Below are positions 1-29,937 of a stretch of 64,000 nt of DNA, one piece after another. Position numbers and translations under genes: made by a program. Within the stretch, counting starts at the first letter, position 1. Each line of letters starts with the position of its first letter. This DNA is from Alphaproteobacteria bacterium (GTDB taxonomy: Bacteria > Pseudomonadota > Alphaproteobacteria > RF32 > CAG-239), in contig JAFTWG010000001.1 in NCBI GenBank assembly GCA_017465405.1, forward strand, positions 126,261 to 190,260, read 5' to 3'. The notes beneath the pieces are model-generated. The model was not told the origin of the DNA. It worked only from the letters and a program-made list of their open reading frames with translations, and searched no databases.

Positions 1-198
1 TTTTTTTCCATAGAAGAAAATATACCCAATTTTCTATACTTTTGTGTTTATATGATATAATAAAAACAACAAAAATGCATGTATTTTAATATAAAAGAAC
101 TCAAATACCCCATTTTAATATCAATATAAACATTTTTTTTGCACATCTTGACATTTCGTTTTTTATGTGTTATATGTATATACAATAGGAGTAAGTGT

Positions 199-1467
199 AT
201 GTTATCATCTTTTAAAATTCAAAACTTTAAGTCTATTCTTGATTTGAATTTAGATTTCAAATTTGATGAAGGAAAAGCACCTAACGGATACAAAGAACTA
301 GATACTGTAGTATTTCTTGAGCCGAAAAGGAATAATAGGTATATTCCATGTTTATCTATATACGGAGCCAATGCTTCTGGCAAAACAAATATTATAAAAG
401 CCTTAGATACATTTAAAGCTATTATAACGTCTCGCATTGACAACCTATATATACCTAATAAAATCAATACTAAATATGTATCGACATTATTCGAACTATC
501 ATTTTTTATAAAAAATAAAGAATATACATATCTGGTAGAGTATAACAAAGATACAATTGTTTTAGAGTCTCTAAAAGAAAATAATGATATTATATTTGAA
601 ATTTCATTAAAAAAACAAAATCTTATAAAAGTTTCAGGTAAAGGATATACTGAGCAACGGTTAAAAGAAATTTTGGATGTAGAATGCTGTGATACTAATA
701 AAAATCAAAAAATAACCTTTTTAAATCGTATAGCCACGAACTATAGCGGATTAAATAAAATCATATCAGATGTATACAAAGCAATAAAGGAAGATATAGA
801 GATATACCCTATAAATATGTTTCCATTATCATTTGGAATGGAAAAACTGGCGGCTTCACAAGATTATAAAGCAATAAATGCATCATTCGAAAAAATTACA
901 TCATTGCTAAGAAAATTAGATATTGATATTGAGCGTATGCAACTAGATAGAAACACAACTAAACTTGCTCAACCTATAGATTTGCAATCACAACCCTATA
1001 GCATATCGATAAAAGATAATATTTTATCGGTAGATTATATCTACTCATACCATAAGGATATTGATGGTAATGAGGTTAAATTTAAATTTACAGAAGAATC
1101 TGAAGGTACTCAAATAATAGCAGGTTTATTAGGTATATTTTTATCAGCTTTAGATAGAGGAGCAACTCTTATTATTGATGAATTAGAACGTTCTTTGCAT
1201 CCCTTATTATTAACTGAGGTTGTCAGATTATTTAAAGACAAGAGATATAATCGTAAAAATGCACAATTAATATTTACTGCTCATAATACAGATATTTTAG
1301 ATGCTGATTTATTAAGAATTTCTGAAATTGGCGTTGTAAAGAAAAATGCTAATAAAGGAACTGTATTAACAAGAGTTTCTTCTTTTGAGGGAATTAGAAA
1401 TGTAACCAATTTCAGAAAACAATACCTAAATGGTGCTTTCTCTGGTATTCCGCACCCTTATATATAA
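199..1467 (+). CDS. AAA/ABC-type ATPase, AbiLi-like (AAA_21 family); track ORF begins at 139 but the ATG at 199 has an AGGAG RBS
   Basis: Walker A 'GANASGKTN', Walker B 'LIIDELERSLHP', H-loop-like 'FTAHN'. N-terminus 'FKIQNFKSI' is typical of AAA_15/21 starts. An RloB-like gene follows immediately. Confidence 0.6.
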   Translation: MLSSFKIQNFKSILDLNLDFKFDEGKAPNGYKELDTVVFLEPKRNNRYIPCLSIYGANASGKTNIIKALDTFKAIITSRIDNLYIPNKINTKYVSTLFELSFFIKNKEYTYLVEYNKDTIVLESLKENNDIIFEISLKKQNLIKVSGKGYTEQRLKEILDVECCDTNKNQKITFLNRIATNYSGLNKIISDVYKAIKEDIEIYPINMFPLSFGMEKLAASQDYKAINASFEKITSLLRKLDIDIERMQLDRNTTKLAQPIDLQSQPYSISIKDNILSVDYIYSYHKDIDGNEVKFKFTEESEGTQIIAGLLGIFLSALDRGATLIIDELERSLHPLLLTEVVRLFKDKRYNRKNAQLIFTAHNTDILDADLLRISEIGVVKKNANKGTVLTRVSSFEGIRNVTNFRKQYLNGAFSGIPHPYI

Positions 1468-1478
1468 GGATAGAAAAA

Positions 1479-2057
1479 ATGAATTATCCCAAGAATGTAT
1501 ACATTATTATATGCGAAGGTCCTTCAGAAAAAGCGTATTTGCAAGAACTTAATCGCTATCTAGAAGATAATGATTATCCAGTTACAATCGTCCCCAAAAC
1601 AATAAACAATGGGCATTTTAAGCCTGCTCAAATAAAATTTAATGAAGTTAAAAAGCAAAATCCTAAAGATATCATTTATATTTGGGTTGATAAGGATACT
1701 TATATTAGGAATGATGAAGGCGATGGGGAAAAATATAATAAAAAGCCTAAGAATATTCCCGATTTTCATTTTAATTATCATAATTTTGAAGACTTTTTAG
1801 CTATGCATATGCCTGATGATATTTTATCTAATTGGCAAGAAATATGTAGAAAAAAGAACCATTTTAACAAACCTTTACATGCAAATATTTACGAACCATT
1901 ATATAAGCAAAACATTATTAATGATTATGAAAAGGGTTCTATGCCTTTTCCAATAACAAAAGAACAAATTATCAATGCATTAAAAAATCAAAAAGATACC
2001 TCCGTCTTATTTAAGAGTGATTTTTTAAATTTATTAGATGATTTGATAAAAAAATAA
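1479..2057 (+). CDS. RloB/AbiLii-like Toprim-superfamily protein, partner of the upstream ATPase
   Basis: N-terminal 'IIICEGPSEKAYL' matches the RloB CEGxTE-type motif. A downstream acidic 'IWVDKD' is consistent with Toprim DxD. It lies 11 bp after the ATPase stop. Confidence 0.5.
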   Translation: MNYPKNVYIIICEGPSEKAYLQELNRYLEDNDYPVTIVPKTINNGHFKPAQIKFNEVKKQNPKDIIYIWVDKDTYIRNDEGDGEKYNKKPKNIPDFHFNYHNFEDFLAMHMPDDILSNWQEICRKKNHFNKPLHANIYEPLYKQNIINDYEKGSMPFPITKEQIINALKNQKDTSVLFKSDFLNLLDDLIKK

Positions 2058-2077
2058 TAAAAATTATAACAAAGTTA

Positions 2078-2383
2078 TTACATATACTTTCTAACCAAAC
2101 CTTGAATTTCAGCGGCAAGACCGGCAGCCTTAAGGAGTTTGTTATGTTTGTTGCTTTTATCCGTCATATTAAAATATGCATATAGTAACATATTTGAGAC
2201 TAAATCTGCCTTTTCCATAATCTCTTTGATAAGGTCTTCAAATGTGCCGTTATAGGCTTCGGATAAGATTTTATAACTTTTAATCTTTTTATGGTTTTGC
2301 TTCAAAAACTCGTGCAAACCGTTAATATTATTGAAGTTTTTATATCCTTTGCGATTTGTAATTGTCTCAATCAACACCTTCAT
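2078..2383 (-). CDS. hypothetical protein (101 aa)
   Basis: ORF with no recognisable motif; transcribed divergently from the 2531 ORF. Confidence 0.3.
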   Translation of the reverse strand: MKVLIETITNRKGYKNFNNINGLHEFLKQNHKKIKSYKILSEAYNGTFEDLIKEIMEKADLVSNMLLYAYFNMTDKSNKHNKLLKAAGLAAEIQGLVRKYM

Positions 2384-2530
2384 ATCATGTCCTTTTGCTT
2401 TATAAAGGTATTTATGGATTTATATGTCAGATATTGTCGTAATAAAAAGCAATAATATCTAAAATCGCTTGATTTTAAGAATATTATTCAGTTTAATAAA
2501 AATATAATCAACTGACTAGGAAAATAAGCA

Positions 2531-3379
2531 ATGAGTATAGAAGACGAGATTAAAGCCTCTAAAGATTATTTGTTAACATTTGTTAGAGAAGATATAAAAA
2601 TACCAATACTTACTATTGATAATGTTGCCAGAGTTGAAGCAATGATACAAGTAGATTCAAGATATTCTAATAATAGAGATGAATATAATGGAGAGACTTC
2701 TTCAAATTTTTTTCATAAATTAAAAGAAATATTAAAAGATAAAGAAGAATTAAAAGATAATGAAAACACTTTAGAGACTTGTATTTATCAAATAGTACGC
2801 ACAATAGATAAGGAAAACAGCACTCATTTAAATTCAAATATAAGAGCAGAGGATGCTAAAGGTGATAATATAAAAAAAACAGGAAGGTACCTAATAGCAG
2901 ATAAAATCCTGCAGTTTAATAAAAAACGTTTTCTGGAGCATTTAACAAATCCCGACAAAGCATTAAAAGAAGATGGTCTTTTTCGAATAATTGAAATAAG
3001 TGGCGGACGTAAAAATACTTCTTTTGCCAGTAAATTTTGTCATTATGCATGTTTTAACTTATTTGATGATAAGAACAAAGACAATTATTCAATTTATGAC
3101 GCCGTAATAAGGATGGCTTTACCTATTTACATCAAGTGGCATAAAGTTACCGTTGAAAACATCAATTATAAGAATGAATATCGTAAAATAAGGAATGCTT
3201 TATGTAGAATAGATTATAAATTATATCAAACTATTGTTGATACTGTTCTAAAGGCTTCCGAAAGTGATATTAGTAGAAACGGATTTGACCATTTATTATG
3301 GTACTATTTCAAAGGAAAAAATGAGCAAGAAATAGAAGAAATCTACAACAGTATAGATACCATGAACAATTCTAAATAA
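2531..3379 (+). CDS. hypothetical protein (282 aa), possible abortive-infection-type protein
   Basis: Clean ORF with an upstream 'aggaaaataagcaATG' RBS and no family recognised; the role is suggested only by the island context. Confidence 0.35.
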   Translation: MSIEDEIKASKDYLLTFVREDIKIPILTIDNVARVEAMIQVDSRYSNNRDEYNGETSSNFFHKLKEILKDKEELKDNENTLETCIYQIVRTIDKENSTHLNSNIRAEDAKGDNIKKTGRYLIADKILQFNKKRFLEHLTNPDKALKEDGLFRIIEISGGRKNTSFASKFCHYACFNLFDDKNKDNYSIYDAVIRMALPIYIKWHKVTVENINYKNEYRKIRNALCRIDYKLYQTIVDTVLKASESDISRNGFDHLLWYYFKGKNEQEIEEIYNSIDTMNNSK

Positions 3380-3603
3380 TCCTAAATAAATTAGAATATT
3401 ATATTCTTAAATGGCCGTATTAAAATAAAAACGCCGCTAAATCAGTGGATTATTATAAAAAATATTGATTTTGCGGCTTGACAGCTGATTCTTGATATGT
3501 TTAAATCAAATCGAAGCGAGAGACATCGATAAGGTGTTTATCTCAAAAAAGTGAATTTATAACCAACTTGTCCCACTTTTAAGCGGACTAAAAGGAGATT
3601 TAA

Positions 3604-4137
3604 ATGAATACGAATATTTCGCATCCGAATATGGTGCAAGCGCTTATGAAAGCGTTATATCAAAACAATTTGCCCACAATTACAGATTTATTGAACCAAG
3701 GAGTTAATGTTAATCTACCATATAACGATAACGGCTGGACACCTTTTATGTGGGTATGTAAAGAGTTTTACGAAACTGATGTTGTCAAAATGTTCTTGGC
3801 TTATGGTGGCAATATTCATTCTCGCAACAAAGCCGGTGAAACTCCATTTATGATTGCTGCTAAAAAACGAAGCAATCCGGACACATTAGATGTTTTGCTT
3901 AAAGAAGGAAGCGATATTAACGCTCAAGATAATTCCGGAAATACTGCTCTTATGAAAGTAGTTCAACATCCGCAAGCAATGATGCGTTTATGTGTAATTG
4001 AGTTTCTTATCAAAAACGGTGCCGATGTTGATATTAAAAACAATGAAGGCAAAGATATTTGGGACTATGTCGATAATCATAAAGGCTTAAATGAGTTTAT
4101 CCTTTGTACATTGTTAGAGAGGTGTGCAAATGACTAA
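3604..4137 (+). CDS. ankyrin-repeat protein (177 aa)
   Basis: Repeats 'GWTPFMWVCKE', 'GETPFMIAAKK', 'GNTALMKVV' and 'KNGADVDIKNNEGKD' match the ANK consensus. RBS 'aaaggagatttaaATG'. Confidence 0.65.
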   Translation: MNTNISHPNMVQALMKALYQNNLPTITDLLNQGVNVNLPYNDNGWTPFMWVCKEFYETDVVKMFLAYGGNIHSRNKAGETPFMIAAKKRSNPDTLDVLLKEGSDINAQDNSGNTALMKVVQHPQAMMRLCVIEFLIKNGADVDIKNNEGKDIWDYVDNHKGLNEFILCTLLERCAND

Positions 4138-4456
4138 TATTCAAGAGATAGCAAGATTAAACGATGAGTTTAGAGCCAATCCATCAAAAGGAGTACTGAT
4201 TTTAACTCAAGGTATCAGATGTAATTCTTCAGAAGATATTGCAACCATTATCAACAAAGTGCGCAATTTCAATGACTTTAATAAAGACAATAATCCATAC
4301 GGTGAAAAAGATTTTGGAGCGTTTGAATTTAAGGGAAAGAAGATTTTCTGGAAAATTGATTATTATGACCGAGAACTTCTTTACATCTCGCCCGATGCCT
4401 GCAACCCAAAACTGACAAACCGTGTACTTACCATAATGTATGCAGATGAATACTAG
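4124..4456 (+). CDS. DUF3768-like small protein (110 aa); overlaps the ankyrin gene by 14 nt
   Basis: Motifs 'IARLNDEFR', 'NNPYGEKDFGAFEF' and 'FWKIDYYD', as remembered for DUF3768 proteins of plasmids and phages. Confidence 0.45.
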   Translation: MQMTNIQEIARLNDEFRANPSKGVLILTQGIRCNSSEDIATIINKVRNFNDFNKDNNPYGEKDFGAFEFKGKKIFWKIDYYDRELLYISPDACNPKLTNRVLTIMYADEY

Positions 4457-4464
4457 GAGGAAAT

Positions 4465-4617
4465 ATGAAATACGATATTATATGTTCCACAAGTGTAGAT
4501 GAACTGATTAAATGGGTAAACCAAAAACTAAAACAAGGTTGGAAACTTCAAGGCGGAATTGCCACAATGACACATCAACCGAGTTACACCGTGTTTTATC
4601 AAGCAATTATAAAATAA
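4465..4617 (+). CDS. DUF1737-like small protein (50 aa); below the 60-aa ORF-track cutoff
   Basis: Strong RBS 'taggaggaaatATG' 8 nt after the previous stop. 'ELIKWVNQKLKQGWKLQGGIATM...YTVFYQAIIK' resembles DUF1737 phage-associated proteins. Confidence 0.4.
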   Translation: MKYDIICSTSVDELIKWVNQKLKQGWKLQGGIATMTHQPSYTVFYQAIIK

Positions 4618-4687
4618 CAGAATATTTAAGACCGAAAGGCTGTGAGACTTATTTCCTTTCACTTACAGCCTTTCATAGGAGAAAGCC

Positions 4688-5272
4688 ATGACAAACAGTG
4701 AATTTGTAGATGATAAGAAAATTAAGGACATTTTGAACTTTATAAAATCAATGAAACATGCCGAGCAAATAAGAATGATGTTTCTTTGTTCCTTAAACGG
4801 TATGCGTTCAATCAATTTTGCATATTTGCAAGTAAAAGATGTTTTTAATGATGAGTTAAAAGTAAAAGACGTAATATGTCTTGATTATGATAAGAACAAA
4901 GGCAAGAACAAGTGCGAATATTATATGAACAGTCAATTAAAGAAAGAGTTTTGCGAATATTTGAAATATCTTCAAAACAAATGGGCTGATAAACTTTCGC
5001 CGGAAACATATCTGTTTACAAGCCAAAAACTCAATAAACCATATAACCGAGCATCAATAAGCAGGATGTTCAGTTCAATTTATAAAAAGTTCAACATTAA
5101 AGGGGCAAGCCATTTAGGCAGGCACTTGTTTGTATCAAAGTTGGTAAACTCCGGAGTTAATATCTGTTTGGTGCAAAAACTGGCTAATCATAAAAACATA
5201 TCAACTACACAGCATTACTTCAATTATAACCAACAAATGCTTGCCAATGCCGTAGAGAATGTGAAGATATGA
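4688..5272 (+). CDS. tyrosine recombinase (phage-integrase family), catalytic domain only; N-terminal core-binding domain absent
   Basis: Catalytic residues are seen: Arg in 'NGMRSINF', 'HLGRHLF' (HxxR) and 'HKNISTTQHY' (H...Y nucleophile). At 194 aa it is too short to include the SAM-like N-domain. Confidence 0.55.
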   Translation: MTNSEFVDDKKIKDILNFIKSMKHAEQIRMMFLCSLNGMRSINFAYLQVKDVFNDELKVKDVICLDYDKNKGKNKCEYYMNSQLKKEFCEYLKYLQNKWADKLSPETYLFTSQKLNKPYNRASISRMFSSIYKKFNIKGASHLGRHLFVSKLVNSGVNICLVQKLANHKNISTTQHYFNYNQQMLANAVENVKI

Positions 5273-5652
5273 TAACACTAGATAAAACGTGTTTTTTAGC
5301 GCATTGCGATTGGATTTATAACAATCGGTACAAGTTACAAAACAGACTTTGTGCTGATTTTGTGGTATCCGGATTTGTTATAAATGCTTTTGCCAGTCCG
5401 TATTACAGTTATTGTATCGATAAAATAACGGTCAGAAACTTAATCAAACTTTGGAACAATGGATTTGTTTATAATAATTTGCCATTAATCCATTACAGCC
5501 AATCTTATGGTGACAACTCAACACATATTGCTTACATTGATAATGGAAACCTAATTAATCAAACATTCTTCTACAATGATGAACAAAAGTATATCCCGAC
5601 AAATGAAGTAAAACAGATTTTGAAAGATTTGAGAATAAGTGTCAATAAATGA
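5269..5652 (+). CDS. hypothetical protein (127 aa); overlaps the recombinase stop by 4 nt
   Basis: ATGA overlap suggests translational coupling; no motif recognised. Confidence 0.3.
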   Translation: MITLDKTCFLAHCDWIYNNRYKLQNRLCADFVVSGFVINAFASPYYSYCIDKITVRNLIKLWNNGFVYNNLPLIHYSQSYGDNSTHIAYIDNGNLINQTFFYNDEQKYIPTNEVKQILKDLRISVNK

Positions 5653-5749
5653 CATTTCGCAAATTTAATTAGTTGTCATCAAGATTATTTTTATCTATCA
5701 TCATCTTACAGCACAAAGAATAATAGATAAAGATGTTAATAGCAGAAAT

Positions 5750-6163
5750 ATGAAGGAATATAATATGACAACATATAGAAAAGTATATAAAGGATTAACA
5801 TTAGAGCAAAAATCTTTATTAAGAGATTTACTCGTTTATCAAATAAGTAAGTATGATATTCAGAATAACATATCTAAACGTAGTACAGCTGTACATTTTC
5901 TGCATGATATATATGAAGATGATTTAATAGCATTTGATAGTACTATGATAATGATGGATGACATAATTAAAATATGCAGAACTGTTCCAGAAAACGAAAG
6001 AGCAAATATTCAGAGGCAGTTATTGTTAAATTCTGATGACGGACTAGTAGGTATTTTATCAATTTACTCTAATGAAACAATAAATGGACTAAAGGAAATT
6101 TTATCTTCCAAAGATAATATTCATATGGCATCAACAAGTTCTGCATGCTGGAGACATATTTAA
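5750..6163 (+). CDS. hypothetical protein (137 aa)
   Basis: ORF only. Confidence 0.3.
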   Translation: MKEYNMTTYRKVYKGLTLEQKSLLRDLLVYQISKYDIQNNISKRSTAVHFLHDIYEDDLIAFDSTMIMMDDIIKICRTVPENERANIQRQLLLNSDDGLVGILSIYSNETINGLKEILSSKDNIHMASTSSACWRHI

Positions 6164-6400
6164 AACTATTAATTATCAAAATTCTCACCTCTCAAAATGT
6201 TAAACAATGTTTGAAATTCTAACAAAGTTTAACATTTTTATTTTACTCATAAGCCCTACCCTATAAAAACACTAGGAAAACTGTCTATTACAAAGAAAAT
6301 GTTAAAGAAGGAATATTCTTTAACATTTTTATTTTTTTGCTTGTAATATAATTTAAATTAGTATAATATGGATTATATTAAATAATATATGAGGTGGATT

Positions 6401-7801
6401 ATGGAATTTATCGGAAGAACGAAAGAGCTTAAAGATTTAGAGCAAGAATATAAAAATAAACATTCCTTTGTGGTTTTGTATGGTCGGCGCAGAATTGGAA
6501 AAACCGAACTGATTAAGCAATTTATTAAAGATAAACCTGCTCTTTATTTTTTGGCAACGGAAGAGGCTGAACCACAGTGTATGAAAAGATTTTCGGCATC
6601 TTTAGCAGAATTTACCAAACAAGAATATTTAAAAAATGCAAACTTTAACGATTGGATAGAATTGTTTAAGATTTTTGCCGATGTGCAAAATAACCAAACT
6701 AAGATATTGGTTTTAGATGAATTTCAATATTTGGTGAATACTAATCCTGCATTTACCTCTGTATTTCAAAAAGTTTGGGATGAAGTCTTATCAAAAAAGG
6801 ACATAATGGTTATCATCTGCGGTTCTTATATCAATATGATGACACGTCAAGTTTTATCTGAAAAAAGCCCTCTATATGGTCGCCGCACCGCACAAATAAG
6901 ATTAGCGCCACTATCGTTTTGTGAAATTCAAGAGCACTATGCAACAGTTCCTTTTGCCGAATTGGTAGAACAATATGCCGTTACCGGAGGTGTTCCGAAA
7001 TATATGGAATTTTTTGCCAACGACAGTACACTGATGGAAAACATTGCCAGAACAGTTCTGAATACGAACGGTTTTTTGTATGATGAACCGGCATTTTTGC
7101 TCAATAAGGAAGTTAAGGAACCGGTTAACTATTACTCCATAATGAAAGTTATTGCAGCTGAAAATCACAAACTATCGGAAATAGCTTCGGCAATGCAAGT
7201 AGAAAGTAACCGTTTAACACCATATTTGGAAACCTTGCAGGGTTTGTATTTGTTGGAAAAACGTGTTCCGGTAACAGAAAACAACCCGGAAAAAAGCCGT
7301 AAAGGTCTTTATGTTATGCGAGATATTTTTATGCGTTTTTGGTTTAAGTTTGTATTTCCTTACAAAGGAGAACTTGAACTGGATAACCTTAATTTTGTTT
7401 TAAGTAAGCTGAATGAACATTTTATTGATAATCATGTTGCTTTTGTTTATGAAGATATTTGCCGTAACATATTTGCCGAACTATGCAAAAAAAGACTGAT
7501 TGATTTTGTGCCGTCACGTATCGGTTCATATTGGGGTAAAAACGAAGAAATTGATTTGGTTGCCGTAGATGAAAGCAATAAGCGTATTTTTGCAGCGGAA
7601 TGCAAATATTACAAAGATGACAAACCGGTTGATGTAGGGGTTTTCGCAAAATTACAAGAAAAGTGCAAGACTAAAGATTTTTCCGGAAACGACATTACTT
7701 ACGGGCTATTCTCCAAGAGTGGTTTTACTAGCCGTTTAAAAGAAATTGCCGCCGGAAATGATAAATTAATATTAATTAACGGCGTAAAACTGGAAAAGTA
7801 A
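6401..7801 (+). CDS. ATP-binding protein, archaeal-type ATPase with DUF234 C-terminal domain
   Basis: Walker A 'LYGRRRIGKTELI', Walker B 'ILVLDEFQYL', and a C-terminal region typical of DUF234. RBS 'gaggtggattATG' at 6401; the track starts at 6389. Confidence 0.6.
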   Translation: MEFIGRTKELKDLEQEYKNKHSFVVLYGRRRIGKTELIKQFIKDKPALYFLATEEAEPQCMKRFSASLAEFTKQEYLKNANFNDWIELFKIFADVQNNQTKILVLDEFQYLVNTNPAFTSVFQKVWDEVLSKKDIMVIICGSYINMMTRQVLSEKSPLYGRRTAQIRLAPLSFCEIQEHYATVPFAELVEQYAVTGGVPKYMEFFANDSTLMENIARTVLNTNGFLYDEPAFLLNKEVKEPVNYYSIMKVIAAENHKLSEIASAMQVESNRLTPYLETLQGLYLLEKRVPVTENNPEKSRKGLYVMRDIFMRFWFKFVFPYKGELELDNLNFVLSKLNEHFIDNHVAFVYEDICRNIFAELCKKRLIDFVPSRIGSYWGKNEEIDLVAVDESNKRIFAAECKYYKDDKPVDVGVFAKLQEKCKTKDFSGNDITYGLFSKSGFTSRLKEIAAGNDKLILINGVKLEK

Positions 7802-8181
7802 CCTTGTATTTTCATATTAAAAATAATTTCAAGCATCGAGTAAACTTTTTATCAATTTAACTTGGTCTTTCATTGCCAATATTTCGCTGTAATGATTGAC
7901 AAGTACATTGTAAAGTTGAGCGGATTTTTCTTTTATTCCTGCGTCCTCCTGCCAGCCAGAGTTCAAAAGTCGTCAAAATGGCGATTTTTTCTTTTATATA
8001 CAAGCATTTAAGCCGGTTCGAAGATTAGCCACCAAATATACTATACCCCAGATAATCTTCGAACTAATTTTAGCAAGAATTTAACATTTTCAATGAGTTA
8101 TGAAGTTCAGCATATATTTAAAATTTTACTTTACATAATGACATCAATCATTTACTCTGAACATTATAGGAGAAAACTCAT

Positions 8182-9396
8182 ATGTTTACATTGTTAGAAT
8201 TATTCAAAAATATAAACACAACCAAGGCATATTTTTTAGGAGCATTGATAACAGCAAATGAATGCTATATACAGGATAATATAAAATATTGGTCCGTACC
8301 GATAAGACATAATCCTGGACAAGCAACTCCTCACGAACTAAAACAGCACTATAATTTCCTAAAAGTACTGTCTAGAAAGGTTAATGGAAATATTTTAACA
8401 TCTGATATTTTGGGAAATAAAATGGGATTTGCTTCAGGAAAGCAAGGTTTTGCTGTTTTATTTACAAGTGATTTAAAAACAAATTTATCATCAATATTAC
8501 AAGCATCTCAGGTAATATTAACAATGAATTCAGATATAAAAAGATCTTTTTTAATTGGTGTTTTTGATGGGAGATCTTCTCTGGATAAAAATAGTACAAC
8601 GGACGAAATACGAAATATAGCGGTTGATTGTGAAGATAAAGCTGGACATGATATTATTTCATCGATCTTGTCTGATTTTGGAATTACCCCATTAAATCAA
8701 AACGAATCTCGAGAAAGATTGGAAGGCGGTAGACCCAGAAAAAATCAGTTAAGAATTCCTAAAAAGTATGTCTCTGAGTTTGCGACCAATATTGGTTTTA
8801 TTTCTCCTCTGAGATTTAAAGCATTTAAAAATAGCTTTTCTGAAATAATTCCTTATATAAAGAATGAAGACTCTTTATTACCAGGTTTAAAAAGTCTTTC
8901 TTATACCCAGACAGAAGATACCATAGAAGAAAATAAACTTGATGATTTGGTTATAAAAAGCACTAATATTGATAATATTAATCCTATTCTCCATACTTAT
9001 TCAGGGATTGCCAAACCCAAACCTGAACCTATTGTCTCTAAAGGACGTAAATTATATGCAAGAAATCCTCAAACAGCAGTTAATGCTTTAACATTGGCAT
9101 CCTACAAGTGTGAAATTGATGGTAATCACTACACGTTTATTAGAAAGAAAAATAACAAACCCTACACAGAACCTCATCACTTAGTACCCATGGCGTTTTC
9201 TGAAAGATTTGATGTTTCTCTTGATGTAGAAGAAAATATTGTGTCCTTATGCAGTAACTGTCATAATTTTTTGCACTATGGACGTGATGCAAAAGAGCTG
9301 TTAAATATTCTTTACCCAAAACGAAAAAATATGCTAGCTAACGTAGGTATAGATATTGATATAGATGACTTGTATGAAATGTACAACTTAGATTAA
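8182..9396 (+). CDS. putative restriction endonuclease: N-terminal LAGLIDADG-like double motif plus C-terminal HNH nuclease
   Basis: C-terminal 'CEIDGNH...EPHHLVP...LCSNCHNFLH' is an HNH motif. The N-terminus carries 'AYFLGALITANEC' and 'SFLIGVFDGRSSL' about 105 aa apart, which is the LAGLIDADG spacing. It converges on and overlaps the m5C methyltransferase stop by 4 nt. Confidence 0.5.
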   Translation: MFTLLELFKNINTTKAYFLGALITANECYIQDNIKYWSVPIRHNPGQATPHELKQHYNFLKVLSRKVNGNILTSDILGNKMGFASGKQGFAVLFTSDLKTNLSSILQASQVILTMNSDIKRSFLIGVFDGRSSLDKNSTTDEIRNIAVDCEDKAGHDIISSILSDFGITPLNQNESRERLEGGRPRKNQLRIPKKYVSEFATNIGFISPLRFKAFKNSFSEIIPYIKNEDSLLPGLKSLSYTQTEDTIEENKLDDLVIKSTNIDNINPILHTYSGIAKPKPEPIVSKGRKLYARNPQTAVNALTLASYKCEIDGNHYTFIRKKNNKPYTEPHHLVPMAFSERFDVSLDVEENIVSLCSNCHNFLHYGRDAKELLNILYPKRKNMLANVGIDIDIDDLYEMYNLD

Positions 9397-10448
9397 TCTT
9401 CATTTAGGAGAATTGTTTCAGCTATTGCCTTTGCTAATAAAGGAGGAACGGCGTTACCGACTTGTAGCATCTGGTCCATTTTCTTTCCATAAAAAATAAA
9501 ATTATCTGGAAAAGACTGTAATCTTGCTGCTTCCCTAACAGTGAGACATCTATCCTGAAATGGCAAGGTAAATTGTCCTGATGCAGGGGTGTCAAAGCGA
9601 GTTGTTATTGTTCTTGAAAAACCTTTAGGATTCATTCGCGTCCATGTACCACTATAAATAGATTTTGTTTGTTGGTCTTTAGGTAAATCATTTTTAGTGC
9701 TAGTTAACGTAACTAATTTTAATCTATCTAAAGCTATTTTACTATGCTTTGTTGAGATATGATTCCATACTCCATCTGACTTTATCCTCATAAGTTTTTG
9801 GTAATCACTTTTGGGCTGTTGCGTATATGGAACAAATTCTAGACCTTCGCCTGATTTTAAGATTGGCAAATCAGATATAGCATCTTCTACACAAGTTACC
9901 ATATGATTAGTATTAGGTAGTCTGTACCTTAAGTCACTGCCTAATTTACCTAAAAAAACAGCGCGTCTTCTTATTTGAGGAACTCCAAAATCTTCAGCCT
10001 TTAATATTTTTACATCAATATAATATCCTAATTCACCAAAACTATGAATAATCTGTTCTTTAAAATATCCATTTTCTGCTGTTAAAATATTTGGAACATT
10101 TTCTAACACAAAAAACTTAGGCTTAACAACTGAAACAACTTCGACAAACTTTTTGAACATAAAATTACGTTCGTCGTTTAGTCCTATCCTTTTTCCTTTT
10201 TGTGAAAATCCCTGACATGGCGGTCCTCCCATGACAACATCAATCTGATCCACATATTTTGAAAACTCTTTTACTATATCTATATCTCTAATATCCCTAG
10301 AATCAACTATAGTATCTGGATGATTTTTTTTATAAGCATTTGCAATACTTTTATTATATTCATTAGCCCAAAGTACTTTAAATCCAGCTAATTCAAATCC
10401 TAAAGACAGACCGCCAACACCAGCAAACAGATCAATAGCTGTTTTCAC
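9393..10448 (-). CDS. DNA (cytosine-5)-methyltransferase
   Basis: Motif I 'DLFAGVGGLSLGF', motif IV 'GGPPCQGFS' and an 'ENV' motif. Confidence 0.85.
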   Translation of the reverse strand: MKTAIDLFAGVGGLSLGFELAGFKVLWANEYNKSIANAYKKNHPDTIVDSRDIRDIDIVKEFSKYVDQIDVVMGGPPCQGFSQKGKRIGLNDERNFMFKKFVEVVSVVKPKFFVLENVPNILTAENGYFKEQIIHSFGELGYYIDVKILKAEDFGVPQIRRRAVFLGKLGSDLRYRLPNTNHMVTCVEDAISDLPILKSGEGLEFVPYTQQPKSDYQKLMRIKSDGVWNHISTKHSKIALDRLKLVTLTSTKNDLPKDQQTKSIYSGTWTRMNPKGFSRTITTRFDTPASGQFTLPFQDRCLTVREAARLQSFPDNFIFYGKKMDQMLQVGNAVPPLLAKAIAETILLNED

Positions 10449-11176
10449 TTAAACCCTCCCAATTTTCTAGTTGCAATATCATAATATTGCTCTTCCAGCT
10501 CTATCCCGTAAAAGCGTCTTTTTGCCTTTAATGCAGCTAACCCTGTAGAACCACTTCCCATAAAAGGATCTAGTACCAAATCGTTCTCATTTGTTAGTAG
10601 CTTTATAAAATGAGATAAAATTTCTTCTGGTTTCTGCGTTGGATGTTTGCCTTCTTTTTGTTCTTTAGCACTAATAACAGCTGATTCTATATAATCATGA
10701 ACAATTTTGCCTTCATTATTGAAAGTACCTGTTTTTCCTTGATTTATAAAATAAATCCAAGCTTCTGTTGAATTGATAAAATGTAGATTCATATTTCTTG
10801 GCATAGGATTTTTTTTATGCCAAATTCCAGTGGTTTTATAATAGAAACCATATTTTTCAGCAATATGAATGATTGTTTCTACTCTTATAATCGACATAAA
10901 CATTATCATAGCGCCACGCTTTTTTAAAACTCTTGCGCTTTCTTGGAAGAATTTATTCATCAATTCCTCCCATTTATCAGCTGCGGCAAAATCCCAATTT
11001 GATGCTGAAAAATGGTTTTTCCTTAATGCTCCAAGGTTTGTTTCTCTATTTTTCATAAACAATCCAAGATTATAAGGAGGATCAGTAAGTATGAGATCAA
11101 CACTTCTATCTCGTATGTCATGCATTTCTGACACACAATCACCTAAACCTAAGACATATTCCTTTTCTTTAATCAT
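10445..11176 (-). CDS. DNA methyltransferase, beta-class N6-adenine/N4-cytosine
   Basis: 'LILTDPPYN' (motif IV) precedes 'DPFMGSGSTG' (motif I). There is a 4-nt ATGA overlap with the downstream m5C methyltransferase. Confidence 0.8.
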   Translation of the reverse strand: MIKEKEYVLGLGDCVSEMHDIRDRSVDLILTDPPYNLGLFMKNRETNLGALRKNHFSASNWDFAAADKWEELMNKFFQESARVLKKRGAMIMFMSIIRVETIIHIAEKYGFYYKTTGIWHKKNPMPRNMNLHFINSTEAWIYFINQGKTGTFNNEGKIVHDYIESAVISAKEQKEGKHPTQKPEEILSHFIKLLTNENDLVLDPFMGSGSTGLAALKAKRRFYGIELEEQYYDIATRKLGGFK

Positions 11177-11496
11177 ATCTCATACTTTTTTTACTTAATT
11201 ACTCTAATGTGTTAACATAAAACGAATAATCTAAAAAATAAATAAAAAAATAAAGATACTATCAATTTTTCTTAGTAATGTATTTTTATAATAAACATAA
11301 TTTAGTTGCTATATGATGTCTCTACAATAGCTGAATTTACTTCTTCTTATAAATCTATATCAAATCCTAAATTTCGTACATGGGGTAAAAAACAACTTTT
11401 ATTATTCAAAAATAAAAGTTACTTTAACCTCGGTTTCCTAGCACCTAAAGTTAAAAACAATCGTATATCATCTCGCAAATTGTGTGTTCTATTTAG

Positions 11497-11531
11497 CCAA
11501 GAAAAAAGTCGTCATTGTTGACGACTTTTTT
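11497..11531. terminator. hairpin 'aaaaagtcgtcattgttgacgactttttt', bidirectional terminator at the nhaA 3' end
   Basis: Perfect inverted repeat flanked by A- and T-runs. Confidence 0.5.
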
Positions 11532-12690
11532 TGATGTGTTCTTGCCATTGAAAAATGGCTGCTCCCCATAATGCCGATAGTAATGAGCCACATAAAATTC
11601 CTAATCTCACTTCTCCTTGCATATATTCCGGCAAAGACAATTTGCCCACAAACAAGGCCATTGTAAAACCTATACCGGCAATAGCTGAAACTCCATATAA
11701 GTCCGCCAATTTAACATCTTTGGGGAACGAAGCAATTCCTATTTTGATAAGCATCCATGTACTCATAAATATACCTATTTGCTTTCCAAAAAATAAACCG
11801 AATATAATCCCTAAAGTCAATGTATGAGTAAATGTTTCTAATGTTATTCCTCCTAAATATAACCCCGCAGATGCAAAAGCAAAAACCGGCAAAATAACAA
11901 AATCGACCCAAGGTTTTAATTTATGGGACAAAGCTTCTAAGGGAGAACTTTTTCTTAAATGAACTCTCATCGGATAGGCCATAGCGACAACAACACCCGA
12001 TATTGTTGTATGAATACCACCGTTTAGGAAACAATACCACAAAACAACTCCTAATATAAAATAAGGAATAAAATTCGTTATTTCCATTTTATTCAAGAAA
12101 TATAATGCAATACAGGTTAAACTTGCGTAGCCTAACAAATCAATGGAAACACCTTGATTATAGAATAAGGCAATAATTAAAATAGCGCCTAAATCATCAA
12201 ATATTGCAATTGCCAACAGAAATATTTTTACAGCCTGCGGAACACTTTTGCCTACCAACATTAAAATACAAACAGCAAAAGCAATATCGGTTGCGGTCGG
12301 AATAGCCCAGCCATTCATATACTGAGGAGAATTATTATTTAAAATTGCATAAATGATTGCAGGACACACAATCCCTCCGAGTGCCGCTAATGCCGGAACA
12401 ATAATTTGTTTTGCATCTGACAAAAATCCCTCTTTCATTTCTCTTTTTAGTTCTAAGCCAATTTGCAAAAAGAAAAACACCATCAAAACATCATTAATCC
12501 ACCACTCCAGAGAGCGGGAAAATTTTATATCTGCCAAACCTAAAAACAATTGCGTTTCCCAAAAATGGGATATTGGTTCACGCCACGGACTATTTGCTAA
12601 ACAGACCGAAGCAAACATTGACAAAATCATTAAAATTCCGCTGGAAACTTCACTGCTGAAAAAATTACTGATTTTTTGTTTAATATCCAT
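11512..12690 (-). CDS. nhaA: Na+/H+ antiporter NhaA
   Basis: Polytopic membrane protein with an NhaA-like N-terminus and core ('ANSPWREPISHFWETQLFLG', 'ATDIAFA', 'AIFDDLGAI'). Confidence 0.8.
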   Translation of the reverse strand: MDIKQKISNFFSSEVSSGILMILSMFASVCLANSPWREPISHFWETQLFLGLADIKFSRSLEWWINDVLMVFFFLQIGLELKREMKEGFLSDAKQIIVPALAALGGIVCPAIIYAILNNNSPQYMNGWAIPTATDIAFAVCILMLVGKSVPQAVKIFLLAIAIFDDLGAILIIALFYNQGVSIDLLGYASLTCIALYFLNKMEITNFIPYFILGVVLWYCFLNGGIHTTISGVVVAMAYPMRVHLRKSSPLEALSHKLKPWVDFVILPVFAFASAGLYLGGITLETFTHTLTLGIIFGLFFGKQIGIFMSTWMLIKIGIASFPKDVKLADLYGVSAIAGIGFTMALFVGKLSLPEYMQGEVRLGILCGSLLSALWGAAIFQWQEHIKKSRQQ

Positions 12691-13087
12691 ATTTCTCCCC
12701 CTGATAATGGCAAAATTAAAGCCTAAACTACTCCACGCTTAGGTTGTTCAAGTATTTTGTTGGTTTATTCATATTCTAATTAAAACTCGCCCTTCAATAT
12801 TTAAACTGTCTTTCTATAAAAAATTAACTAAAATCGATTTTTCTTATAGATGACAGAATAATGATTAAAAGTTTCAATCTTTCACCCGAAATATTTACTA
12901 TAACTTCGGTTATATATATCTTTTACACATTAATAATGTGTAAAAATGTTCTCTAAGTGATTGTATAAATCAATAGTATCTCAAAGGAAACTATAGTACT
13001 TTCAGGTGCTTACTTTACATTTTGTTGCAGATATACTACCAATTATTTCATAACAATCTTAACTTCAATAAATAAAGGATATGGATT

Positions 13088-14350
13088 ATGAAAAAATTTT
13101 TAGCGACAACCGCTTTATGTACAACTTGTATGTTTAGTATTTCTGCTTATGCTTCAGGATACCAACTTAACGAATATTCTGTTACCAATCTCGGACGTTC
13201 TTTTGCCGGTGCCGGTATAGTTGGTGATGACTACTCTGCAATAGCTTATAACCCTGCCGGTATGACCTTGAAAAAATCCGGTACACAACTAAACTTTACC
13301 GTTGCGGAAATAGCATCTGAGATGAAGGGGCAAAATGCCAAACAAGGCAAAAAAACAGAAATGGATTTTGGGGTACCTCTACCTTCCGTATATGGACAAT
13401 ATCAAGTTAGCGACAAGTGGTTTGTCGGTGCCGGCATTTATGCTCCTTACGGATTAGCAACTAAATATAAAACAGATAGTTTTATTGCCGACAAAGCCAA
13501 AGAGTCTATTTTAGAAGTAATTGATTATAATGTTTCAGCTGCATATAAATTAAATTCTAAATGGTCTTTTGGTGCCAGCTTTATAGCACGTTATATCTAC
13601 GGCAAAATGACTAATAACATTAATGGGGCATCTTTCGGTGCCGGAGATACCAATATTAGCCGTAGCAAATTTGAACTTGACGGTTGGACATATACCGGAA
13701 CTTTTGGCATAATGTACGAACATAATGAAAATACTCGTTTCGGATTATCTTATAAACCAAAATCAGTACAAAGAGTAAAAGGCGACCATACCGTATCGTT
13801 AGCATATCCCTATAATATGCATCCGATATTAGGTAAATATGCAGGTGTTTATACCGATGGAAAAGCATCTCCCGACTTGCCGGAAACGGTTTTATTATCA
13901 GCTTATCATAAACCGTTTGAAAAGGTTGCTTTTACCGGAGCTGTTCGCTTTACTCGTTGGGGAGATTCATTTGAAGAATTTGATATGACTTCAAGTTTCA
14001 CCAAAGGATTAGGTTTGAAACCCGTTGATTATTCTTGGAAAGACACTTGGACAATCTCTCTCGGAACAGACTATTACGTTAACGATAATTGGACTTTGCG
14101 ATTGGGAACAGCTTGGGATCAATCTCCAACTCCGGATAATCAACATCGCACTCATAGAATACCAGATTCTGACAGAATATGGGCTTCCGTAGGTCTCAGC
14201 TATCATTATAAAAATATGCAACTTGATTTAGGATATGCTCATTTATTCATGAAAGAATCTTATATCAGAGATAGCGTAAATAAAGACCATGACACTCAAT
14301 ATAAAGCACATAGCAATATGTTTGGATTAGGTTTTCAATATAATTTCTAA
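13088..14350 (+). CDS. outer-membrane long-chain fatty acid/aromatic hydrocarbon transporter, FadL/OmpP1/TodX family
   Basis: Signal peptide, N-terminal 'SGYQLNEYSVTNLGRSFAGAG' characteristic of FadL, and a beta-barrel C-terminus 'GLGFQYNF'. Confidence 0.7.
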   Translation: MKKFLATTALCTTCMFSISAYASGYQLNEYSVTNLGRSFAGAGIVGDDYSAIAYNPAGMTLKKSGTQLNFTVAEIASEMKGQNAKQGKKTEMDFGVPLPSVYGQYQVSDKWFVGAGIYAPYGLATKYKTDSFIADKAKESILEVIDYNVSAAYKLNSKWSFGASFIARYIYGKMTNNINGASFGAGDTNISRSKFELDGWTYTGTFGIMYEHNENTRFGLSYKPKSVQRVKGDHTVSLAYPYNMHPILGKYAGVYTDGKASPDLPETVLLSAYHKPFEKVAFTGAVRFTRWGDSFEEFDMTSSFTKGLGLKPVDYSWKDTWTISLGTDYYVNDNWTLRLGTAWDQSPTPDNQHRTHRIPDSDRIWASVGLSYHYKNMQLDLGYAHLFMKESYIRDSVNKDHDTQYKAHSNMFGLGFQYNF

Positions 14351-14367
14351 ATCTTTTCATATTCGGC

Positions 14368-14410
14368 AAAACTCCGCATTTTATCAAACAAAATGCGGGG
14401 TTTTGTTTTA
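14368..14410 (+). terminator. rho-independent terminator after the FadL-like gene
   Basis: 'ccgcatttt...aaaatgcgg' stem followed by 'ggttttgtttt'. Confidence 0.6.
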
Positions 14411-14418
14411 ATAAATTT

Positions 14419-15471
14419 TTATTGTGACTCTTTAGTATTAAAATATGTTCCGCAATTTGAATATGTACCTGCATAATTCAAAATATAATTAAAAGGACAA
14501 TCCACAGATACAAAATACTCTGCATCATCGTCAATAACTTTACAGACCTCTTTCAAACTAACTCGTTTATTATCCTCTTTCGTCAATTTTACTTCATCCG
14601 GTTCAATGTTTTGTTCTTTTGCAATGTCTATAACAATTAATTGCTCTCTTAATGCTTCAAAAAAACTCGACACTCCGCTGAATCTCTCTTCTTTAGTGCC
14701 CCAATCTCTTCCATTATAAAACTCATTTATATTATTATAATTTTCCGTTAAATTTCCCAATTCAAAATTTTTCTTTAATAGTGCCATTTGATCATTTTCT
14801 GCTATTTCTATTTCTTTTTTGAATTTTTCTCTTACCTTATTCGGATAATTAACCATTTCATACCCTTGTGCCATACAAAATTCCGGATAGGCATACGTAT
14901 GTCTATATATCTCTCCTACGGCAAGTCCCAAATGAAAAGCCGGTCGATTAGTATCAGGCATGTATTTGTCTTTTAATTCAAACATACCAAAAATTCCAAT
15001 AACGGCTATAATTGAAAAAACAATAGGAAAACGTGTTAAAAAACTTCTCTTTTGTTCATCAATATTTTGTTTTGAAGGACGTATGACAAGAAGCAAATTA
15101 GCTAATATGGCAATAGCAATAACTGTATATATACCCCATTTGATTGTAGGGAAAAAAGATACATCTATATCATAAGTCAAGGCACCGGTGTAAAGCAATG
15201 CAATATTTGTTAAAATATATCCTGTCCCCGAACTTCTAAACGATCTTGCACGTTTTTGCACCAAAGCAGTCAAACAATATATTAACAGGAAAAATACTAT
15301 AATATATGATATAAAACCCAATATACATAATCTTGTCATCATCAAAAGTAAAAAAACAGCTATTATGTATGGTGTACGAGCAATTACACCTTTATAAGAA
15401 AAAAAGAGTTTAAAAATATTACCCGAAAACAAATATTGATTTATTTTTTTTAAAAATTGATTTATCTGCAT
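14419..15471 (-). CDS. hypothetical polytopic membrane protein (350 aa)
   Basis: Several hydrophobic helices in the N-terminal half; no family recognised. Confidence 0.4.
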   Translation of the reverse strand: MQINQFLKKINQYLFSGNIFKLFFSYKGVIARTPYIIAVFLLLMMTRLCILGFISYIIVFFLLIYCLTALVQKRARSFRSSGTGYILTNIALLYTGALTYDIDVSFFPTIKWGIYTVIAIAILANLLLVIRPSKQNIDEQKRSFLTRFPIVFSIIAVIGIFGMFELKDKYMPDTNRPAFHLGLAVGEIYRHTYAYPEFCMAQGYEMVNYPNKVREKFKKEIEIAENDQMALLKKNFELGNLTENYNNINEFYNGRDWGTKEERFSGVSSFFEALREQLIVIDIAKEQNIEPDEVKLTKEDNKRVSLKEVCKVIDDDAEYFVSVDCPFNYILNYAGTYSNCGTYFNTKESQ

Positions 15472-15664
15472 GGCTTTCTCCTTACCATCACATTATAATA
15501 ATGACCTTTAATTTTCAACATTAAATTTTATATCAATTACTGACATATATTCTAATCCCCATCAGATATATTAAAAAATTTAACATTCCTCTCTTGTATG
15601 CCACAAAAAAACACCGCTGATTAGCGGTGTAATTTTTAGCGTCAAACACTCGACATCGTAACCT

Positions 15665-16315: not shown

Positions 16316-16510
16316 AATAGTATAGTGTTAGTTATTAGAATAATTTCTTAAGCGTTCTAATACTAACATTTTTTGTCCATAGTGTCAAGTATAACCCTTA
16401 CCTGATATTTTACGAATGAACGTATTATATAACAACAAAAAATCCTGAACTTGCAAAACGCAATTCAGGATTTTTAAAAGCTTTAGACCAAAGCACGATA
16501 AACACATTGG

Positions 16511-29012: not shown

Positions 29013-29229
29013 TTTACATCTCCATAAAAGCCCATTTATGGCGATGCTAATTAATTATATTCATATCATTTTATATAAAATTCATAATTTCCAACAATTC
29101 TGTGGATTTATAGTCCTTTTTTATTTAAATTTTAACATTTTCCCCTTATTCTCAGGCTATATAATCTAAATGGGCATCTATTTTATATATCCTTGATAAA
29201 TAATAATACAATTTATCAAGGATTTAGTT

Positions 29230-29835: not shown

Positions 29836-29904
29836 ATTGCTCTATACTCCTAATTAATATTTTTTATAACTTTTTACCTTTGCCCCCAACTTTGACGATG
29901 AACC

Positions 29905-29933: not shown

Positions 29934-29937
29934 TAAG

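Follow-up and report, generated by a model that had tools for sequence, protein, structure and literature searches.

The sequence studied was a 64,000-nucleotide (nt) stretch, hereafter the window, from an Alphaproteobacteria bacterium of the lineage RF32/CAG-239 (assembly GCA_017465405.1, contig JAFTWG010000001.1, positions 126,261 to 190,260), and its first 11 kilobases (kb), lying against the housekeeping gene nhaA, were the visible half of a strain-specific, variable, horizontally acquired, defence-carrying island of at least 21 kb. The window was identical to part of the 713-kb metagenome scaffold ERZ28654267 scaffold_1, and leftward sequence was read from the same scaffold (negative numbers denote positions left of the window), giving 21.3 kb in all from -9801 to 11504. 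The closest genome records were gut and rumen 'Alphaproteobacteria bacterium' metagenome-assembled genomes. Sequence comparison was applied to 46 loci around NhaA relatives (L005, L006 and L007 among them), and backbone genes were counted in 80 metagenome loci carrying the recombinase described below, from gut and rumen contigs; families of island proteins were searched in Pfam, NCBIfam, PADLOC and PHROGs. The following genes, open reading frames (ORFs) and other features were located, with protein lengths in amino acids (aa):

About -4390 to -1120 (L159:5410-8683), minus strand: Hsp70-like trio encoding proteins of 373 aa, 473 aa (Hsp70/actin-fold ATPase) and 239 aa
199..1467, plus strand: AbiLi, an ABC/AAA_21 ATPase, 422 aa as called (PADLOC 2.6e-70, Pfam AAA_21 4.5e-29), in slot 2a
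1479..2057, plus strand: AbiLii, RloB-family partner, 192 aa (PADLOC 1.5e-9, a weak match over a partial stretch of the profile)
2078..2383, minus strand: 101-aa ORF, backbone, with a homologue (median 43% identity) in 34 of 80 related islands
2531..3379, plus strand: 282-aa ORF, cargo in slot 2b, without a family match and absent from 80 of 80 related islands
3477..3598, plus strand: promoter-like site (3477-3506) and conserved 48-nt leader (3551-3598) of the backbone operon
3604..4137, plus strand: ankyrin-repeat protein, 177 aa (Pfam Ank 1.1e-21), in 65 of 80 islands
4130..4456, plus strand: DUF3768 protein, 108 aa as called (Pfam 4.7e-32), in 74 of 80 islands
4465..4617, plus strand: DUF1737 protein, 50 aa (Pfam 3.4e-7), in 76 of 80 islands
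4688..5272, plus strand: tyrosine recombinase, 194 aa, catalytic domain only (Pfam Phage_integrase 1.5e-21, residues 6-182)
5269..5652, plus strand: 127-aa ORF, backbone, overlapping the recombinase stop by 4 nt, with a homologue in 61 of 80 islands
5765..6163, plus strand: 132-aa ORF, cargo in slot 3 (from the 127-aa ORF to the palindromes), absent from related islands
6194..6329: non-coding twin-palindrome element, P1 at 6194-6238 and P2 at 6296-6329, with shared arms AAAATGTTAAA / TTTAACATTTT
6401..7801, plus strand: ATPase_2 plus DUF234 ATPase, 466 aa (PADLOC PDC-S27 1.5e-61 over residues 6-427)
7952-8107, plus strand: internal att-like repeat composed of the last ~7 nt of tRNA-Gln(UUG) (CCAGCCA), a terminator hairpin and the 3' flank
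8182..9396, plus strand: putative restriction endonuclease R404, 404 aa, with a predicted N-terminal double-LAGLIDADG-like domain and a C-terminal McrA-type HNH domain
9393..10448, minus strand: C5 cytosine methyltransferase, 351 aa (Pfam DNA_methylase 5.2e-74, TIGR00675 3.6e-67, PADLOC MTase_II 1.7e-110)
10445..11176, minus strand: N4/N6 methyltransferase, 243 aa (Pfam N6_N4_Mtase 7e-43, PADLOC MTase_II 1.6e-57)
11492-11532, plus strand: right island boundary, a degenerate tRNA-end remnant (TTTAGCCA) plus the nhaA terminator hairpin
11512..12690, minus strand: nhaA (Pfam 6.4e-133)

The block was accessory, because the same-species contig L005 (NhaA 99% identity; 97.6% nucleotide identity over window 11504-16388, from nhaA to FadL) carried other defence genes in place of the island genes, none of which was found downstream of its nhaA in the locus comparison. 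Between nhaA and tRNA-Gln(UUG), L005 harbored several genes without known function besides an AbiV/HEPN gene and a Type I/IIG-like methyltransferase that has a specificity domain, and this gene stretch was closed by tRNA-Gln(UUG) 9 kb from nhaA. L006 (NhaA 96%) had only 6195-8123, the DUF234 module, in common with the window, at 95% nucleotide identity, and otherwise contained a Type IIG enzyme, a HipA fragment and a large serine recombinase. The right boundary was placed where homology with L005 started again, at window 11504. To the left, the same scaffold carried more than 9.8 kb of further island genes (an ankyrin gene, the Hsp70-like three-gene set, a 174-aa helix-turn-helix (HTH) gene, McrC, McrB, and an AIPR gene), and the island therefore extended from 11504 leftward to at least window -9801; the sequence read up to that point, where AIPR was the leftmost gene, showed no left boundary. 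The left part of the island was compositionally foreign: window -8521 to 3478 had 25-28% guanine plus cytosine (GC) and a tetranucleotide z of 4 to 7.5 versus the rest of the window, while window 3479-11478 was near the genome norm (z 0.9 to 1.7); window GC excluding the island was 34.8%.

A preliminary description, made from the letters of the window alone, had read these 11 kb as a mobile composite defence island whose left edge lay outside the window, and in these respects it agreed with the comparison: the genes that it named were all present according to Pfam, NCBIfam and PADLOC, the island did continue leftward, and the block was variable and horizontally acquired. It had named two outcomes that would speak against an island, a gene order conserved in all close relatives and a lack of hits to defence hidden Markov models (HMMs), and neither occurred, because gene order downstream of nhaA varied among close relatives and defence HMMs of PADLOC matched AbiLi/AbiLii, PDC-S27 and two Type II methyltransferases. 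The k-mer profile that it proposed deviated in the left part of the island only, the part from 3479 onwards being near the norm. Its figure of at least five ORFs without a recognisable family was roughly right, in that four called genes (the 101-aa, 282-aa, 127-aa and 132/137-aa ORFs) had no match in Pfam, NCBIfam, PADLOC or PHROGs, and AbiLii and the nuclease fell below Pfam cut-offs.

Across its length the island was divided into a conserved backbone and variable cargo. The backbone was a set of genes conserved in at least 80 gut/rumen metagenome contigs, belonging to an element family undescribed in the literature searched, and a relative of its recombinase was encoded in 132 metagenome stretches. 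Besides the backbone genes listed above, it included two genes left of the window, the second ankyrin gene (in 45 of 80 islands) and the 174-aa HTH gene (in 35 of 80), the latter with weak resemblance to phage replication initiators (PHROG 2.5e-4). Homologues of the 101-aa ORF were located directly upstream of the ankyrin operon in most of the 34 islands that had one, and those of the 127-aa ORF displayed 41-59% identity in the loci examined first. The 48-nt leader (GTGAATTTATAACCAACTTGTCCCACTTTTAAGCGGACTAAAAGGAGA), also directly upstream of the ankyrin operon, was nearly identical in diverged islands and gave no Rfam match; the whole stretch 3477-3598, for which 22 of 80 loci had a match (median identity 87%), would act as promoter and leader of the operon. 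The distance from the DUF1737 end to the recombinase start was 70 nt here and 1 nt or an overlap in relatives, and the source assemblies had no gene call for a 59-aa ORF at 4512-4691. Members of the DUF3768 family were frequent on plasmids of Alphaproteobacteria (482 records, including 252 conjugative ones). The literature search found no paper on DUF3768, and it found DUF1737 in Shiga toxin (Stx)-phage esterase contexts only. An AlphaFold2 (AF2) model of DUF3768 built without an alignment reached a predicted local distance difference test (pLDDT) score of 51 and was not used.

The preliminary description had counted the ankyrin, DUF3768 and DUF1737 genes as a defence-type module. These genes stayed constant while the neighbouring defence genes varied, and they therefore behaved as backbone of a mobile element, shared with the recombinase, rather than as cargo. 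That they would themselves constitute a defence or anti-defence system was judged unlikely: they always occurred among defence genes, the ankyrin protein matched the PADLOC candidate PDC-M72A at 6.4e-21, and the conjugative plasmids that carried DUF3768 are replicons on which anti-defence genes are common, but the PDC-M72A match was confined to the ankyrin repeats, DUF3768, DUF1737 and the 127-aa ORF had no PADLOC match, and the genes were conserved where every neighbouring defence gene varied.

AbiL, the 282-aa ORF and the 132-aa ORF were cargo, inserted at hot spots of this backbone. The lengths of slot 2, bounded by the two ankyrin genes, were 523-5379 bp (n=45); those of slot 3, which runs from the 127-aa gene up to the palindromes, were 2-6768 bp (n=36). 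Two loci, L055 and L057, had identical recombinases and differed solely in the replacement of 5.0 kb by 2.1 kb between the ankyrin genes, the junctions lying directly after a terminator and ~130 nt before the operon start. Within slot 2, AbiL lay between the second ankyrin gene and the 101-aa ORF (slot 2a), while the 282-aa ORF (slot 2b) was found at the point where L148, L155, L156 and L158 held 0, 1.2, 1.5 and 2.9 kb of unrelated DNA, respectively, without target duplication at these junctions; slot 3 of relatives contained T5orf172, CoiA_N, DarT or HipA genes. No repeated site was found at cargo borders, and cargos carried their own promoters and were arranged in mixed directions. The 135 non-redundant ORFs neighbouring the backbone in related islands matched many PADLOC families, among them TmtA, mad3, HEC-06, AriA, AbiLi, SspE, GajA, PtuA and PDC-S01. 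In the 80 related loci, by comparison, AbiLii, the 282-aa ORF, the 132-aa ORF, R404, McrB and the Hsp70-like trio were each present in none, and McrC had a single match at 23% identity.

The individual cargos differed in how closely they resembled known systems. AbiLi and AbiLii were adjacent, co-directional and 11 nt apart, and both components of the PADLOC definition of AbiL were thus in place; both component models were matched, but AbiLii only weakly, with a weak precomputed RloB match that stayed below Pfam cut-offs, and the pair is a putative abortive-infection system. No close homologue of either gene was found in the 80 related islands, where eight loci had ~26% identity to the ATPase and AbiLii was matched in none. 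The DUF234 ATPase (Pfam DUF234 1.3e-23, ATPase_2 3.3e-23) was present in 19 of 80 islands, ~220 nt after the palindrome wherever both were detected, and here, as in L006 and L122, no further gene separated it from the tRNA-flank repeat; PDC-S27 is a candidate defence family only, and the status of DUF234 as cargo is less strict than that of AbiL, the 282-aa ORF and the 132-aa ORF.

Further observations concern the cargo. The Hsp70-like trio, located within a backbone cargo slot at 25% GC, had no PADLOC match and is a candidate new defence system. At the far left, L159:1-3816 (window about -9800 to -5985) carried McrBC and a cut-off AIPR gene. The nearest McrC relatives outside the lineage had 64-68% identity, and those with a taxon name were (gut) Firmicutes, most matches being without a name, which suggests transfer between phyla; the representative of the McrC cluster, at 93% identity, was on a 2.9-kb contig. 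At window 3550-3577, just inside the conserved right-hand border of slot 2, two Logan contigs of run SRR12529334 ended with an overlap of ~27 nt, a hint that strains with different slot 2 cargo co-existed in that sample.

The 194-aa tyrosine recombinase, described in the preliminary reading as an orphan catalytic domain, was full length for its family and a member of the backbone. More than 120 clusters at 76-94% identity were nearly all 193-194 aa long, one exact recombinase sequence was indexed in 354 blocks of the assembly collection, and distant relatives at 27-36% identity had 185-200 aa and aligned end to end. Sampled longer or shorter homologues appeared to be alternative starts or assembly artefacts, and a DUF1737-recombinase fusion was rejected on the same grounds, since the longer ones were assembly or start-codon artefacts. 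Residues R40, H142, R145, H168 and Y177 aligned with the catalytic residues of XerA, the full set, so that the enzyme is predicted to be catalytically intact. The recombinase was the best-conserved backbone gene, with a median of 87% identity versus 42-67% for the other backbone genes across the 80 loci, and with 77-88% versus 40-69% for its neighbours in a smaller set of loci compared first. It was almost always paired with DUF1737 and DUF3768. A scan of IMG/VR with the recombinase returned no relatives.

Of 45 long loci, 38 had the twin-palindrome element downstream of the recombinase. Its arms had two matches against 0 expected by chance, and in 31 loci from different species it kept a fixed 41+61+30 nt geometry (41-nt palindrome, 61-nt spacer, 30-nt palindrome). 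Stems were nearly invariant (20 of 29 pairs unchanged, two pairs changed from U-A to U-G), while loops and flanks varied; covariation therefore says little on RNA structure, although a plus-strand hairpin or terminator would be compatible with the two U-A to U-G changes. In two comparisons, the window with L006 and L063 with L064, homology stopped at the palindrome edges. The element could be a terminator pair, an operator, an origin or a recombination site. An attC-like reading of GTTAAAC...GTTTAAC was rejected, since the order is reversed relative to attC R''/R', and inversion of the segment between the palindromes was not supported, one orientation only being seen in 31 loci.

An integron-like platform, in which the short recombinase, perhaps together with the DUF1737 protein, would capture and exchange defence cassettes at the twin palindromes and slot borders, draws on several of these properties: the recombinase is the most conserved backbone gene and has an apparently complete active site, the palindromes keep their geometry, and nearly all of their arm sequence, in 31 loci, inter-island homology ends at their edges, and different cargos occupy one identical point. 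Integrons, too, display a tyrosine recombinase beside a variable gene array, and palindromic sites. Several observations speak against this reading: individual cargos were not surrounded by a repeated site or an attC-like site after each of them, and slot 2b junctions had no target duplication; junctions between a terminator and a promoter are also expected from homologous recombination in conserved flanks; cargos, unlike integron cassettes, had their own promoters and mixed directions; the palindromes were situated 0.26-7.3 kb from the recombinase gene, with their GTTAAAC...GTTTAAC order the reverse of attC R''/R'; and the recombinase, a catalytic domain without the N-terminal domain, failed the integron-integrase models (TIGR02249, 30.8 bits versus a cut-off of 265; NF011946, 16.9 versus 435). 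The platform was accordingly considered quite improbable, as was the broader proposal that recombinase, DUF1737, DUF3768 and twin palindromes form a new site-specific recombination system, a platform for defence-gene capture distinct from integrons.

Phase variation was weighed in the same way and given a still smaller chance. In this scenario the 194-aa recombinase would be an invertase of FimB/FimE type that flips a promoter segment and so switches downstream cargo such as DUF234. Its single-domain size is that of FimB-type invertases, its relatives at 27-36% identity are all ~190 aa, the NCBIfam 'tyrosine-type DNA invertase' model (NF007370) aligned residues 4-182 with model positions 10-181 of 200, thus covering most of both sequences, and a 61-nt segment lying ~70 nt ahead of the DUF234 start is enclosed by inverted arms. 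The score on that model was nevertheless 33.6 bits versus a cut-off of 221, the order P1(41)-61-P2(30) relative to the recombinase was constant in 31 loci, the central segment aligned no better reversed than forward, and no other conserved inverted-repeat pair was found near the recombinase gene. A role of the recombinase in element maintenance is our guess, preferred over both the integron-like and the invertase roles. That the island is a phage satellite or a prophage in decay, its defence genes being morons, would suit the recombinase, the weak phage-initiator likeness of the 174-aa HTH gene (PHROG 2.5e-4) and the tRNA-associated integration common in such elements, but was highly improbable given the lack of recombinase relatives in IMG/VR and of structural, packaging and lysis genes in the 21 kb or in related islands.

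The position of the island was structured by repeats of a tRNA end. Each copy of the 7952-8107 repeat consisted, in tRNA sense, of the last 7-12 nt of the tRNA (..CCAGCCA), then the tRNA terminator hairpin (predicted at 7965-7989 in the window), then ~80 nt of flank; four copies were found in L005, one of them directly 3' of the real tRNA-Gln(UUG), two in L006, and further ones in L019, L059, L122 and L145. Within the sequence read, the tRNA end occurred at 7952-8107 (internal) and at 11492-11532 (nhaA-proximal, overlapping an nhaA terminator predicted at 11501-11532). In L005, the 24-nt stretch adjoining the tRNA (CCAGCCACAGTTCAAAAATCGTCA) was repeated at the nhaA end with one mismatch, and its 9-kb island was therefore bracketed by a direct repeat, two further copies being inside it. 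An Rfam scan of L005, L006 and L051 detected tRNA only. From these repeats we infer that the anchor of the island is the 3' end of tRNA-Gln(UUG), and that nhaA, which the preliminary description had taken as the reference point, is just the next gene, its adjacency being incidental. In L007 (NhaA 90%), tRNA-Gln(CUG) directly abutted the nhaA terminator with nothing between; this locus was tried as a clean empty site and rejected since its flanks were not syntenic, and it supports tRNA-Gln/nhaA adjacency only.

Related elements displayed the machinery expected for integration at tRNA genes. L066 was a complete 13.7-kb element with the backbone, a P4-type integrase, and a 64-nt direct repeat (97%) of the tRNA-Lys 3' half at its ends. 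Fourteen loci had a large serine recombinase gene downstream of the backbone, abutting a tRNA (Gln, Lys or Glu) wherever a tRNA gene was detected, and one contig held two backbone copies. L082 and L089 showed the orientation predicted for the window: their tRNA-Gln(UUG) preceded the recombinase by 4.3 kb and shared its strand. In the sequence read, window -9801 to 11504, neither a P4-type nor a large serine integrase was present. Relatives have one; here it may lie further left or have been lost.

The copies of the tRNA end plus terminator flanked the restriction-modification module, which points to two acquisitions, and the segment ~8108-11491 was probably acquired separately from the rest of the island. 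Its methyltransferases both scored far beyond their Pfam cut-offs, and both were matched, in tandem, by the 587-aa PADLOC Type II model PDLC03279, a fusion of both types. Full-length R404 homologues had 36-64% identity (~80 clusters), and those at 40-42% identity adjoined the same methyltransferase pair (an N6_N4 methyltransferase of ~240 aa and a C5 methyltransferase of ~355 aa) in two unrelated contexts, L071-L074 and L075-L078, so that the trio formed a unit. Plasmid homologues comprised the HNH half only, as stand-alone 'HNH endonuclease' genes, and no methyltransferase was adjacent in the one record examined. R404 stayed below Pfam cut-offs; its HNH domain was recognised through PDB 6ghc (3.2e-12) and a PADLOC HNH model (7e-13), and the residues H332/H333, N352 and C357/C360/H361 were invariant in 43 homologues. 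For the N-terminus, an AF2 model (pLDDT 90.9) indicated a monomeric double-LAGLIDADG (αββαββα) fold like that of I-DmoI (Foldseek probability 1.0, E 1e-6, template modelling (TM) score 0.6 on the target), and Pfam LAGLIDADG_3 was reached at 6.3e-4, below the cut-off. Its second motif, FLIGVFDGRSS, kept G126, D129 and G130 invariant in the same 43 homologues, and the first motif, YFLGALITANE, had no invariant acidic residue.

The nature of this module was approached through its partners. Type IIS systems such as MnlI and Eco31I/Esp3I/Alw26I combine one HNH nuclease with two methyltransferases of different classes, and the module here likewise had one HNH nuclease, one C5 and one amino-methyltransferase; the presence of two methyltransferase classes suggests that the site is asymmetric and Type IIS-like. 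R404 differed from those enzymes in its modelled N-terminal I-DmoI-like fold. We know of no restriction enzyme with a double-LAGLIDADG fold, and the literature search found no paper on LAGLIDADG-HNH restriction enzymes; R404, if active, would add a new recognition fold to restriction enzymes. Since its HNH domain was closest to Type IV McrA, a modification-dependent role may also apply. Two neighbouring observations concern the same module. In L075:1-6233, the methyltransferase pair was flanked by an R404 homologue on one side and LlaJI-type R1/R2 genes (AAA_5 + RE_LlaJI) on the other, and two different nucleases appear to share one methyltransferase pair in that lineage. Window 11333-11456, ~125 nt upstream of the N4/N6 methyltransferase, had 79% identity to the region upstream of an unrelated methyltransferase (L005 14327-14450) and may represent a leader or regulatory element that restriction-modification modules have in common.

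Taken with the above, window 1-11504 is probably the nhaA-proximal part of an island of at least 21 kb built in three layers: (i) a mobile backbone, comprising the 101-aa ORF, the ankyrin-DUF3768-DUF1737-recombinase-127-aa operon and the twin palindromes, with the second ankyrin gene and the replication-initiator-like HTH gene leftward; (ii) slotted defence cargo, i.e., AbiLi/AbiLii, the 282-aa ORF, the 132-aa ORF and DUF234/PDC-S27, and leftward the putative Hsp70-like system, McrBC and AIPR; and (iii) a Type II restriction-modification module that was acquired on its own and has a copy of the tRNA-Gln 3' end plus terminator on either side. The preliminary description had lined up five modules in a simple string, which the backbone with its cargo slots and the separately flanked segment replace. 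The island would extend from nhaA to a tRNA-Gln(UUG) beyond the window's left end, encoded on the plus strand of the window, its 3' end facing the island and reading ...CCAGCCA(C/G)AGTTCAAAAGTCGTCA. The family would integrate site-specifically at tRNA 3' ends, relatives using a P4-type integrase or a large serine recombinase; the island would have grown by successive integrations at the same tRNA, and cargo would be exchanged between related elements by recombination in conserved backbone flanks. The defence modules presumably act independently of one another, and the short recombinase would serve the element, e.g., in resolution or rearrangement, possibly at the twin palindromes, rather than defence.

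Some observations weigh against this three-layer island. Its own tRNA-Gln gene and integrase were not seen in the 21.3 kb read, and no excised form or attP was observed. The tRNA abutting nhaA in L007 was the CUG isoacceptor, and synteny beyond nhaA was lost on both sides there. Relative to the tRNA, the backbone here runs opposite to its arrangement in L055 and L066, although L082 and L089 share the orientation of the window. The evidence for cargo exchange by homologous recombination consists of sharp junctions inside conserved flanks, and the island genes are candidates for defence function by family match, PDC-S27 itself being a candidate family. On the other side stand direct observations: the identity of the genes, the differences in this block among close relatives, its division into backbone and cargo, and the repeats.

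Genomic and defence islands integrated at tRNA genes and carrying integrases are a well-known general concept, and the overall picture is therefore ordinary. The island resembled them in its strain-variable content, probably beside a tRNA, in its internal and nhaA-proximal copies of the tRNA 3' end, in its several unrelated defence systems and in the P4-type or large serine integrases of its relatives, but differed in having no integrase in the 21 kb read and in a backbone (two ankyrin genes, DUF3768, DUF1737, 194-aa recombinase, twin palindromes) undescribed in the literature searched. P2/P4-like elements contain defence hot spots, and Prochlorococcus tycheposons form arrays at tRNAs. Like the former, the family had fixed insertion points between conserved element genes that held different defence cargos, and as in the latter, tandem accretion at a tRNA leaves partial tRNA repeats; it differed from both in backbone, host lineage and recombinases, and had no phage genes here. 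Pipolins (PMC11551731) were likewise distinct, because the primer-independent PolB gene that defines them was lacking from the 21 kb, in no gene of which a polymerase domain was found, and the core genes were entirely different. The defence-island repertoire of E. coli is treated in PMC10121019.

The island was thus of a known general kind, in a previously undescribed family with a backbone-and-slot architecture. Three points were new: (i) a widespread undescribed element family of uncultured gut and rumen Alphaproteobacteria with a recognisable backbone and defined cargo slots; (ii) a highly conserved minimal tyrosine recombinase; and (iii) a nuclease predicted to join a homing-endonuclease-type LAGLIDADG scaffold to an HNH domain. 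Since the backbone is recognisable and the slots are defined, they offer a practical guide to new defence genes, e.g., the 282-aa ORF, the 132-aa ORF and the Hsp70-like trio.

Two further observations were made in the window to the right of nhaA. At window 16388, 5 kb from nhaA and between the 216-aa and 209-aa ORFs, synteny with L005 broke off and 6.3 kb of unrelated sequence followed in L005, making this a second variable point. A serine resolvase gene at window 29230-29835 had 71% identity to resolvases inside related islands and adjoined tRNA-Asp (29938-30014) and a 773-aa ankyrin/DSBA-domain gene; the surrounding stretch of 26% GC, window 26691-30014, may be a second mobile-element remnant.

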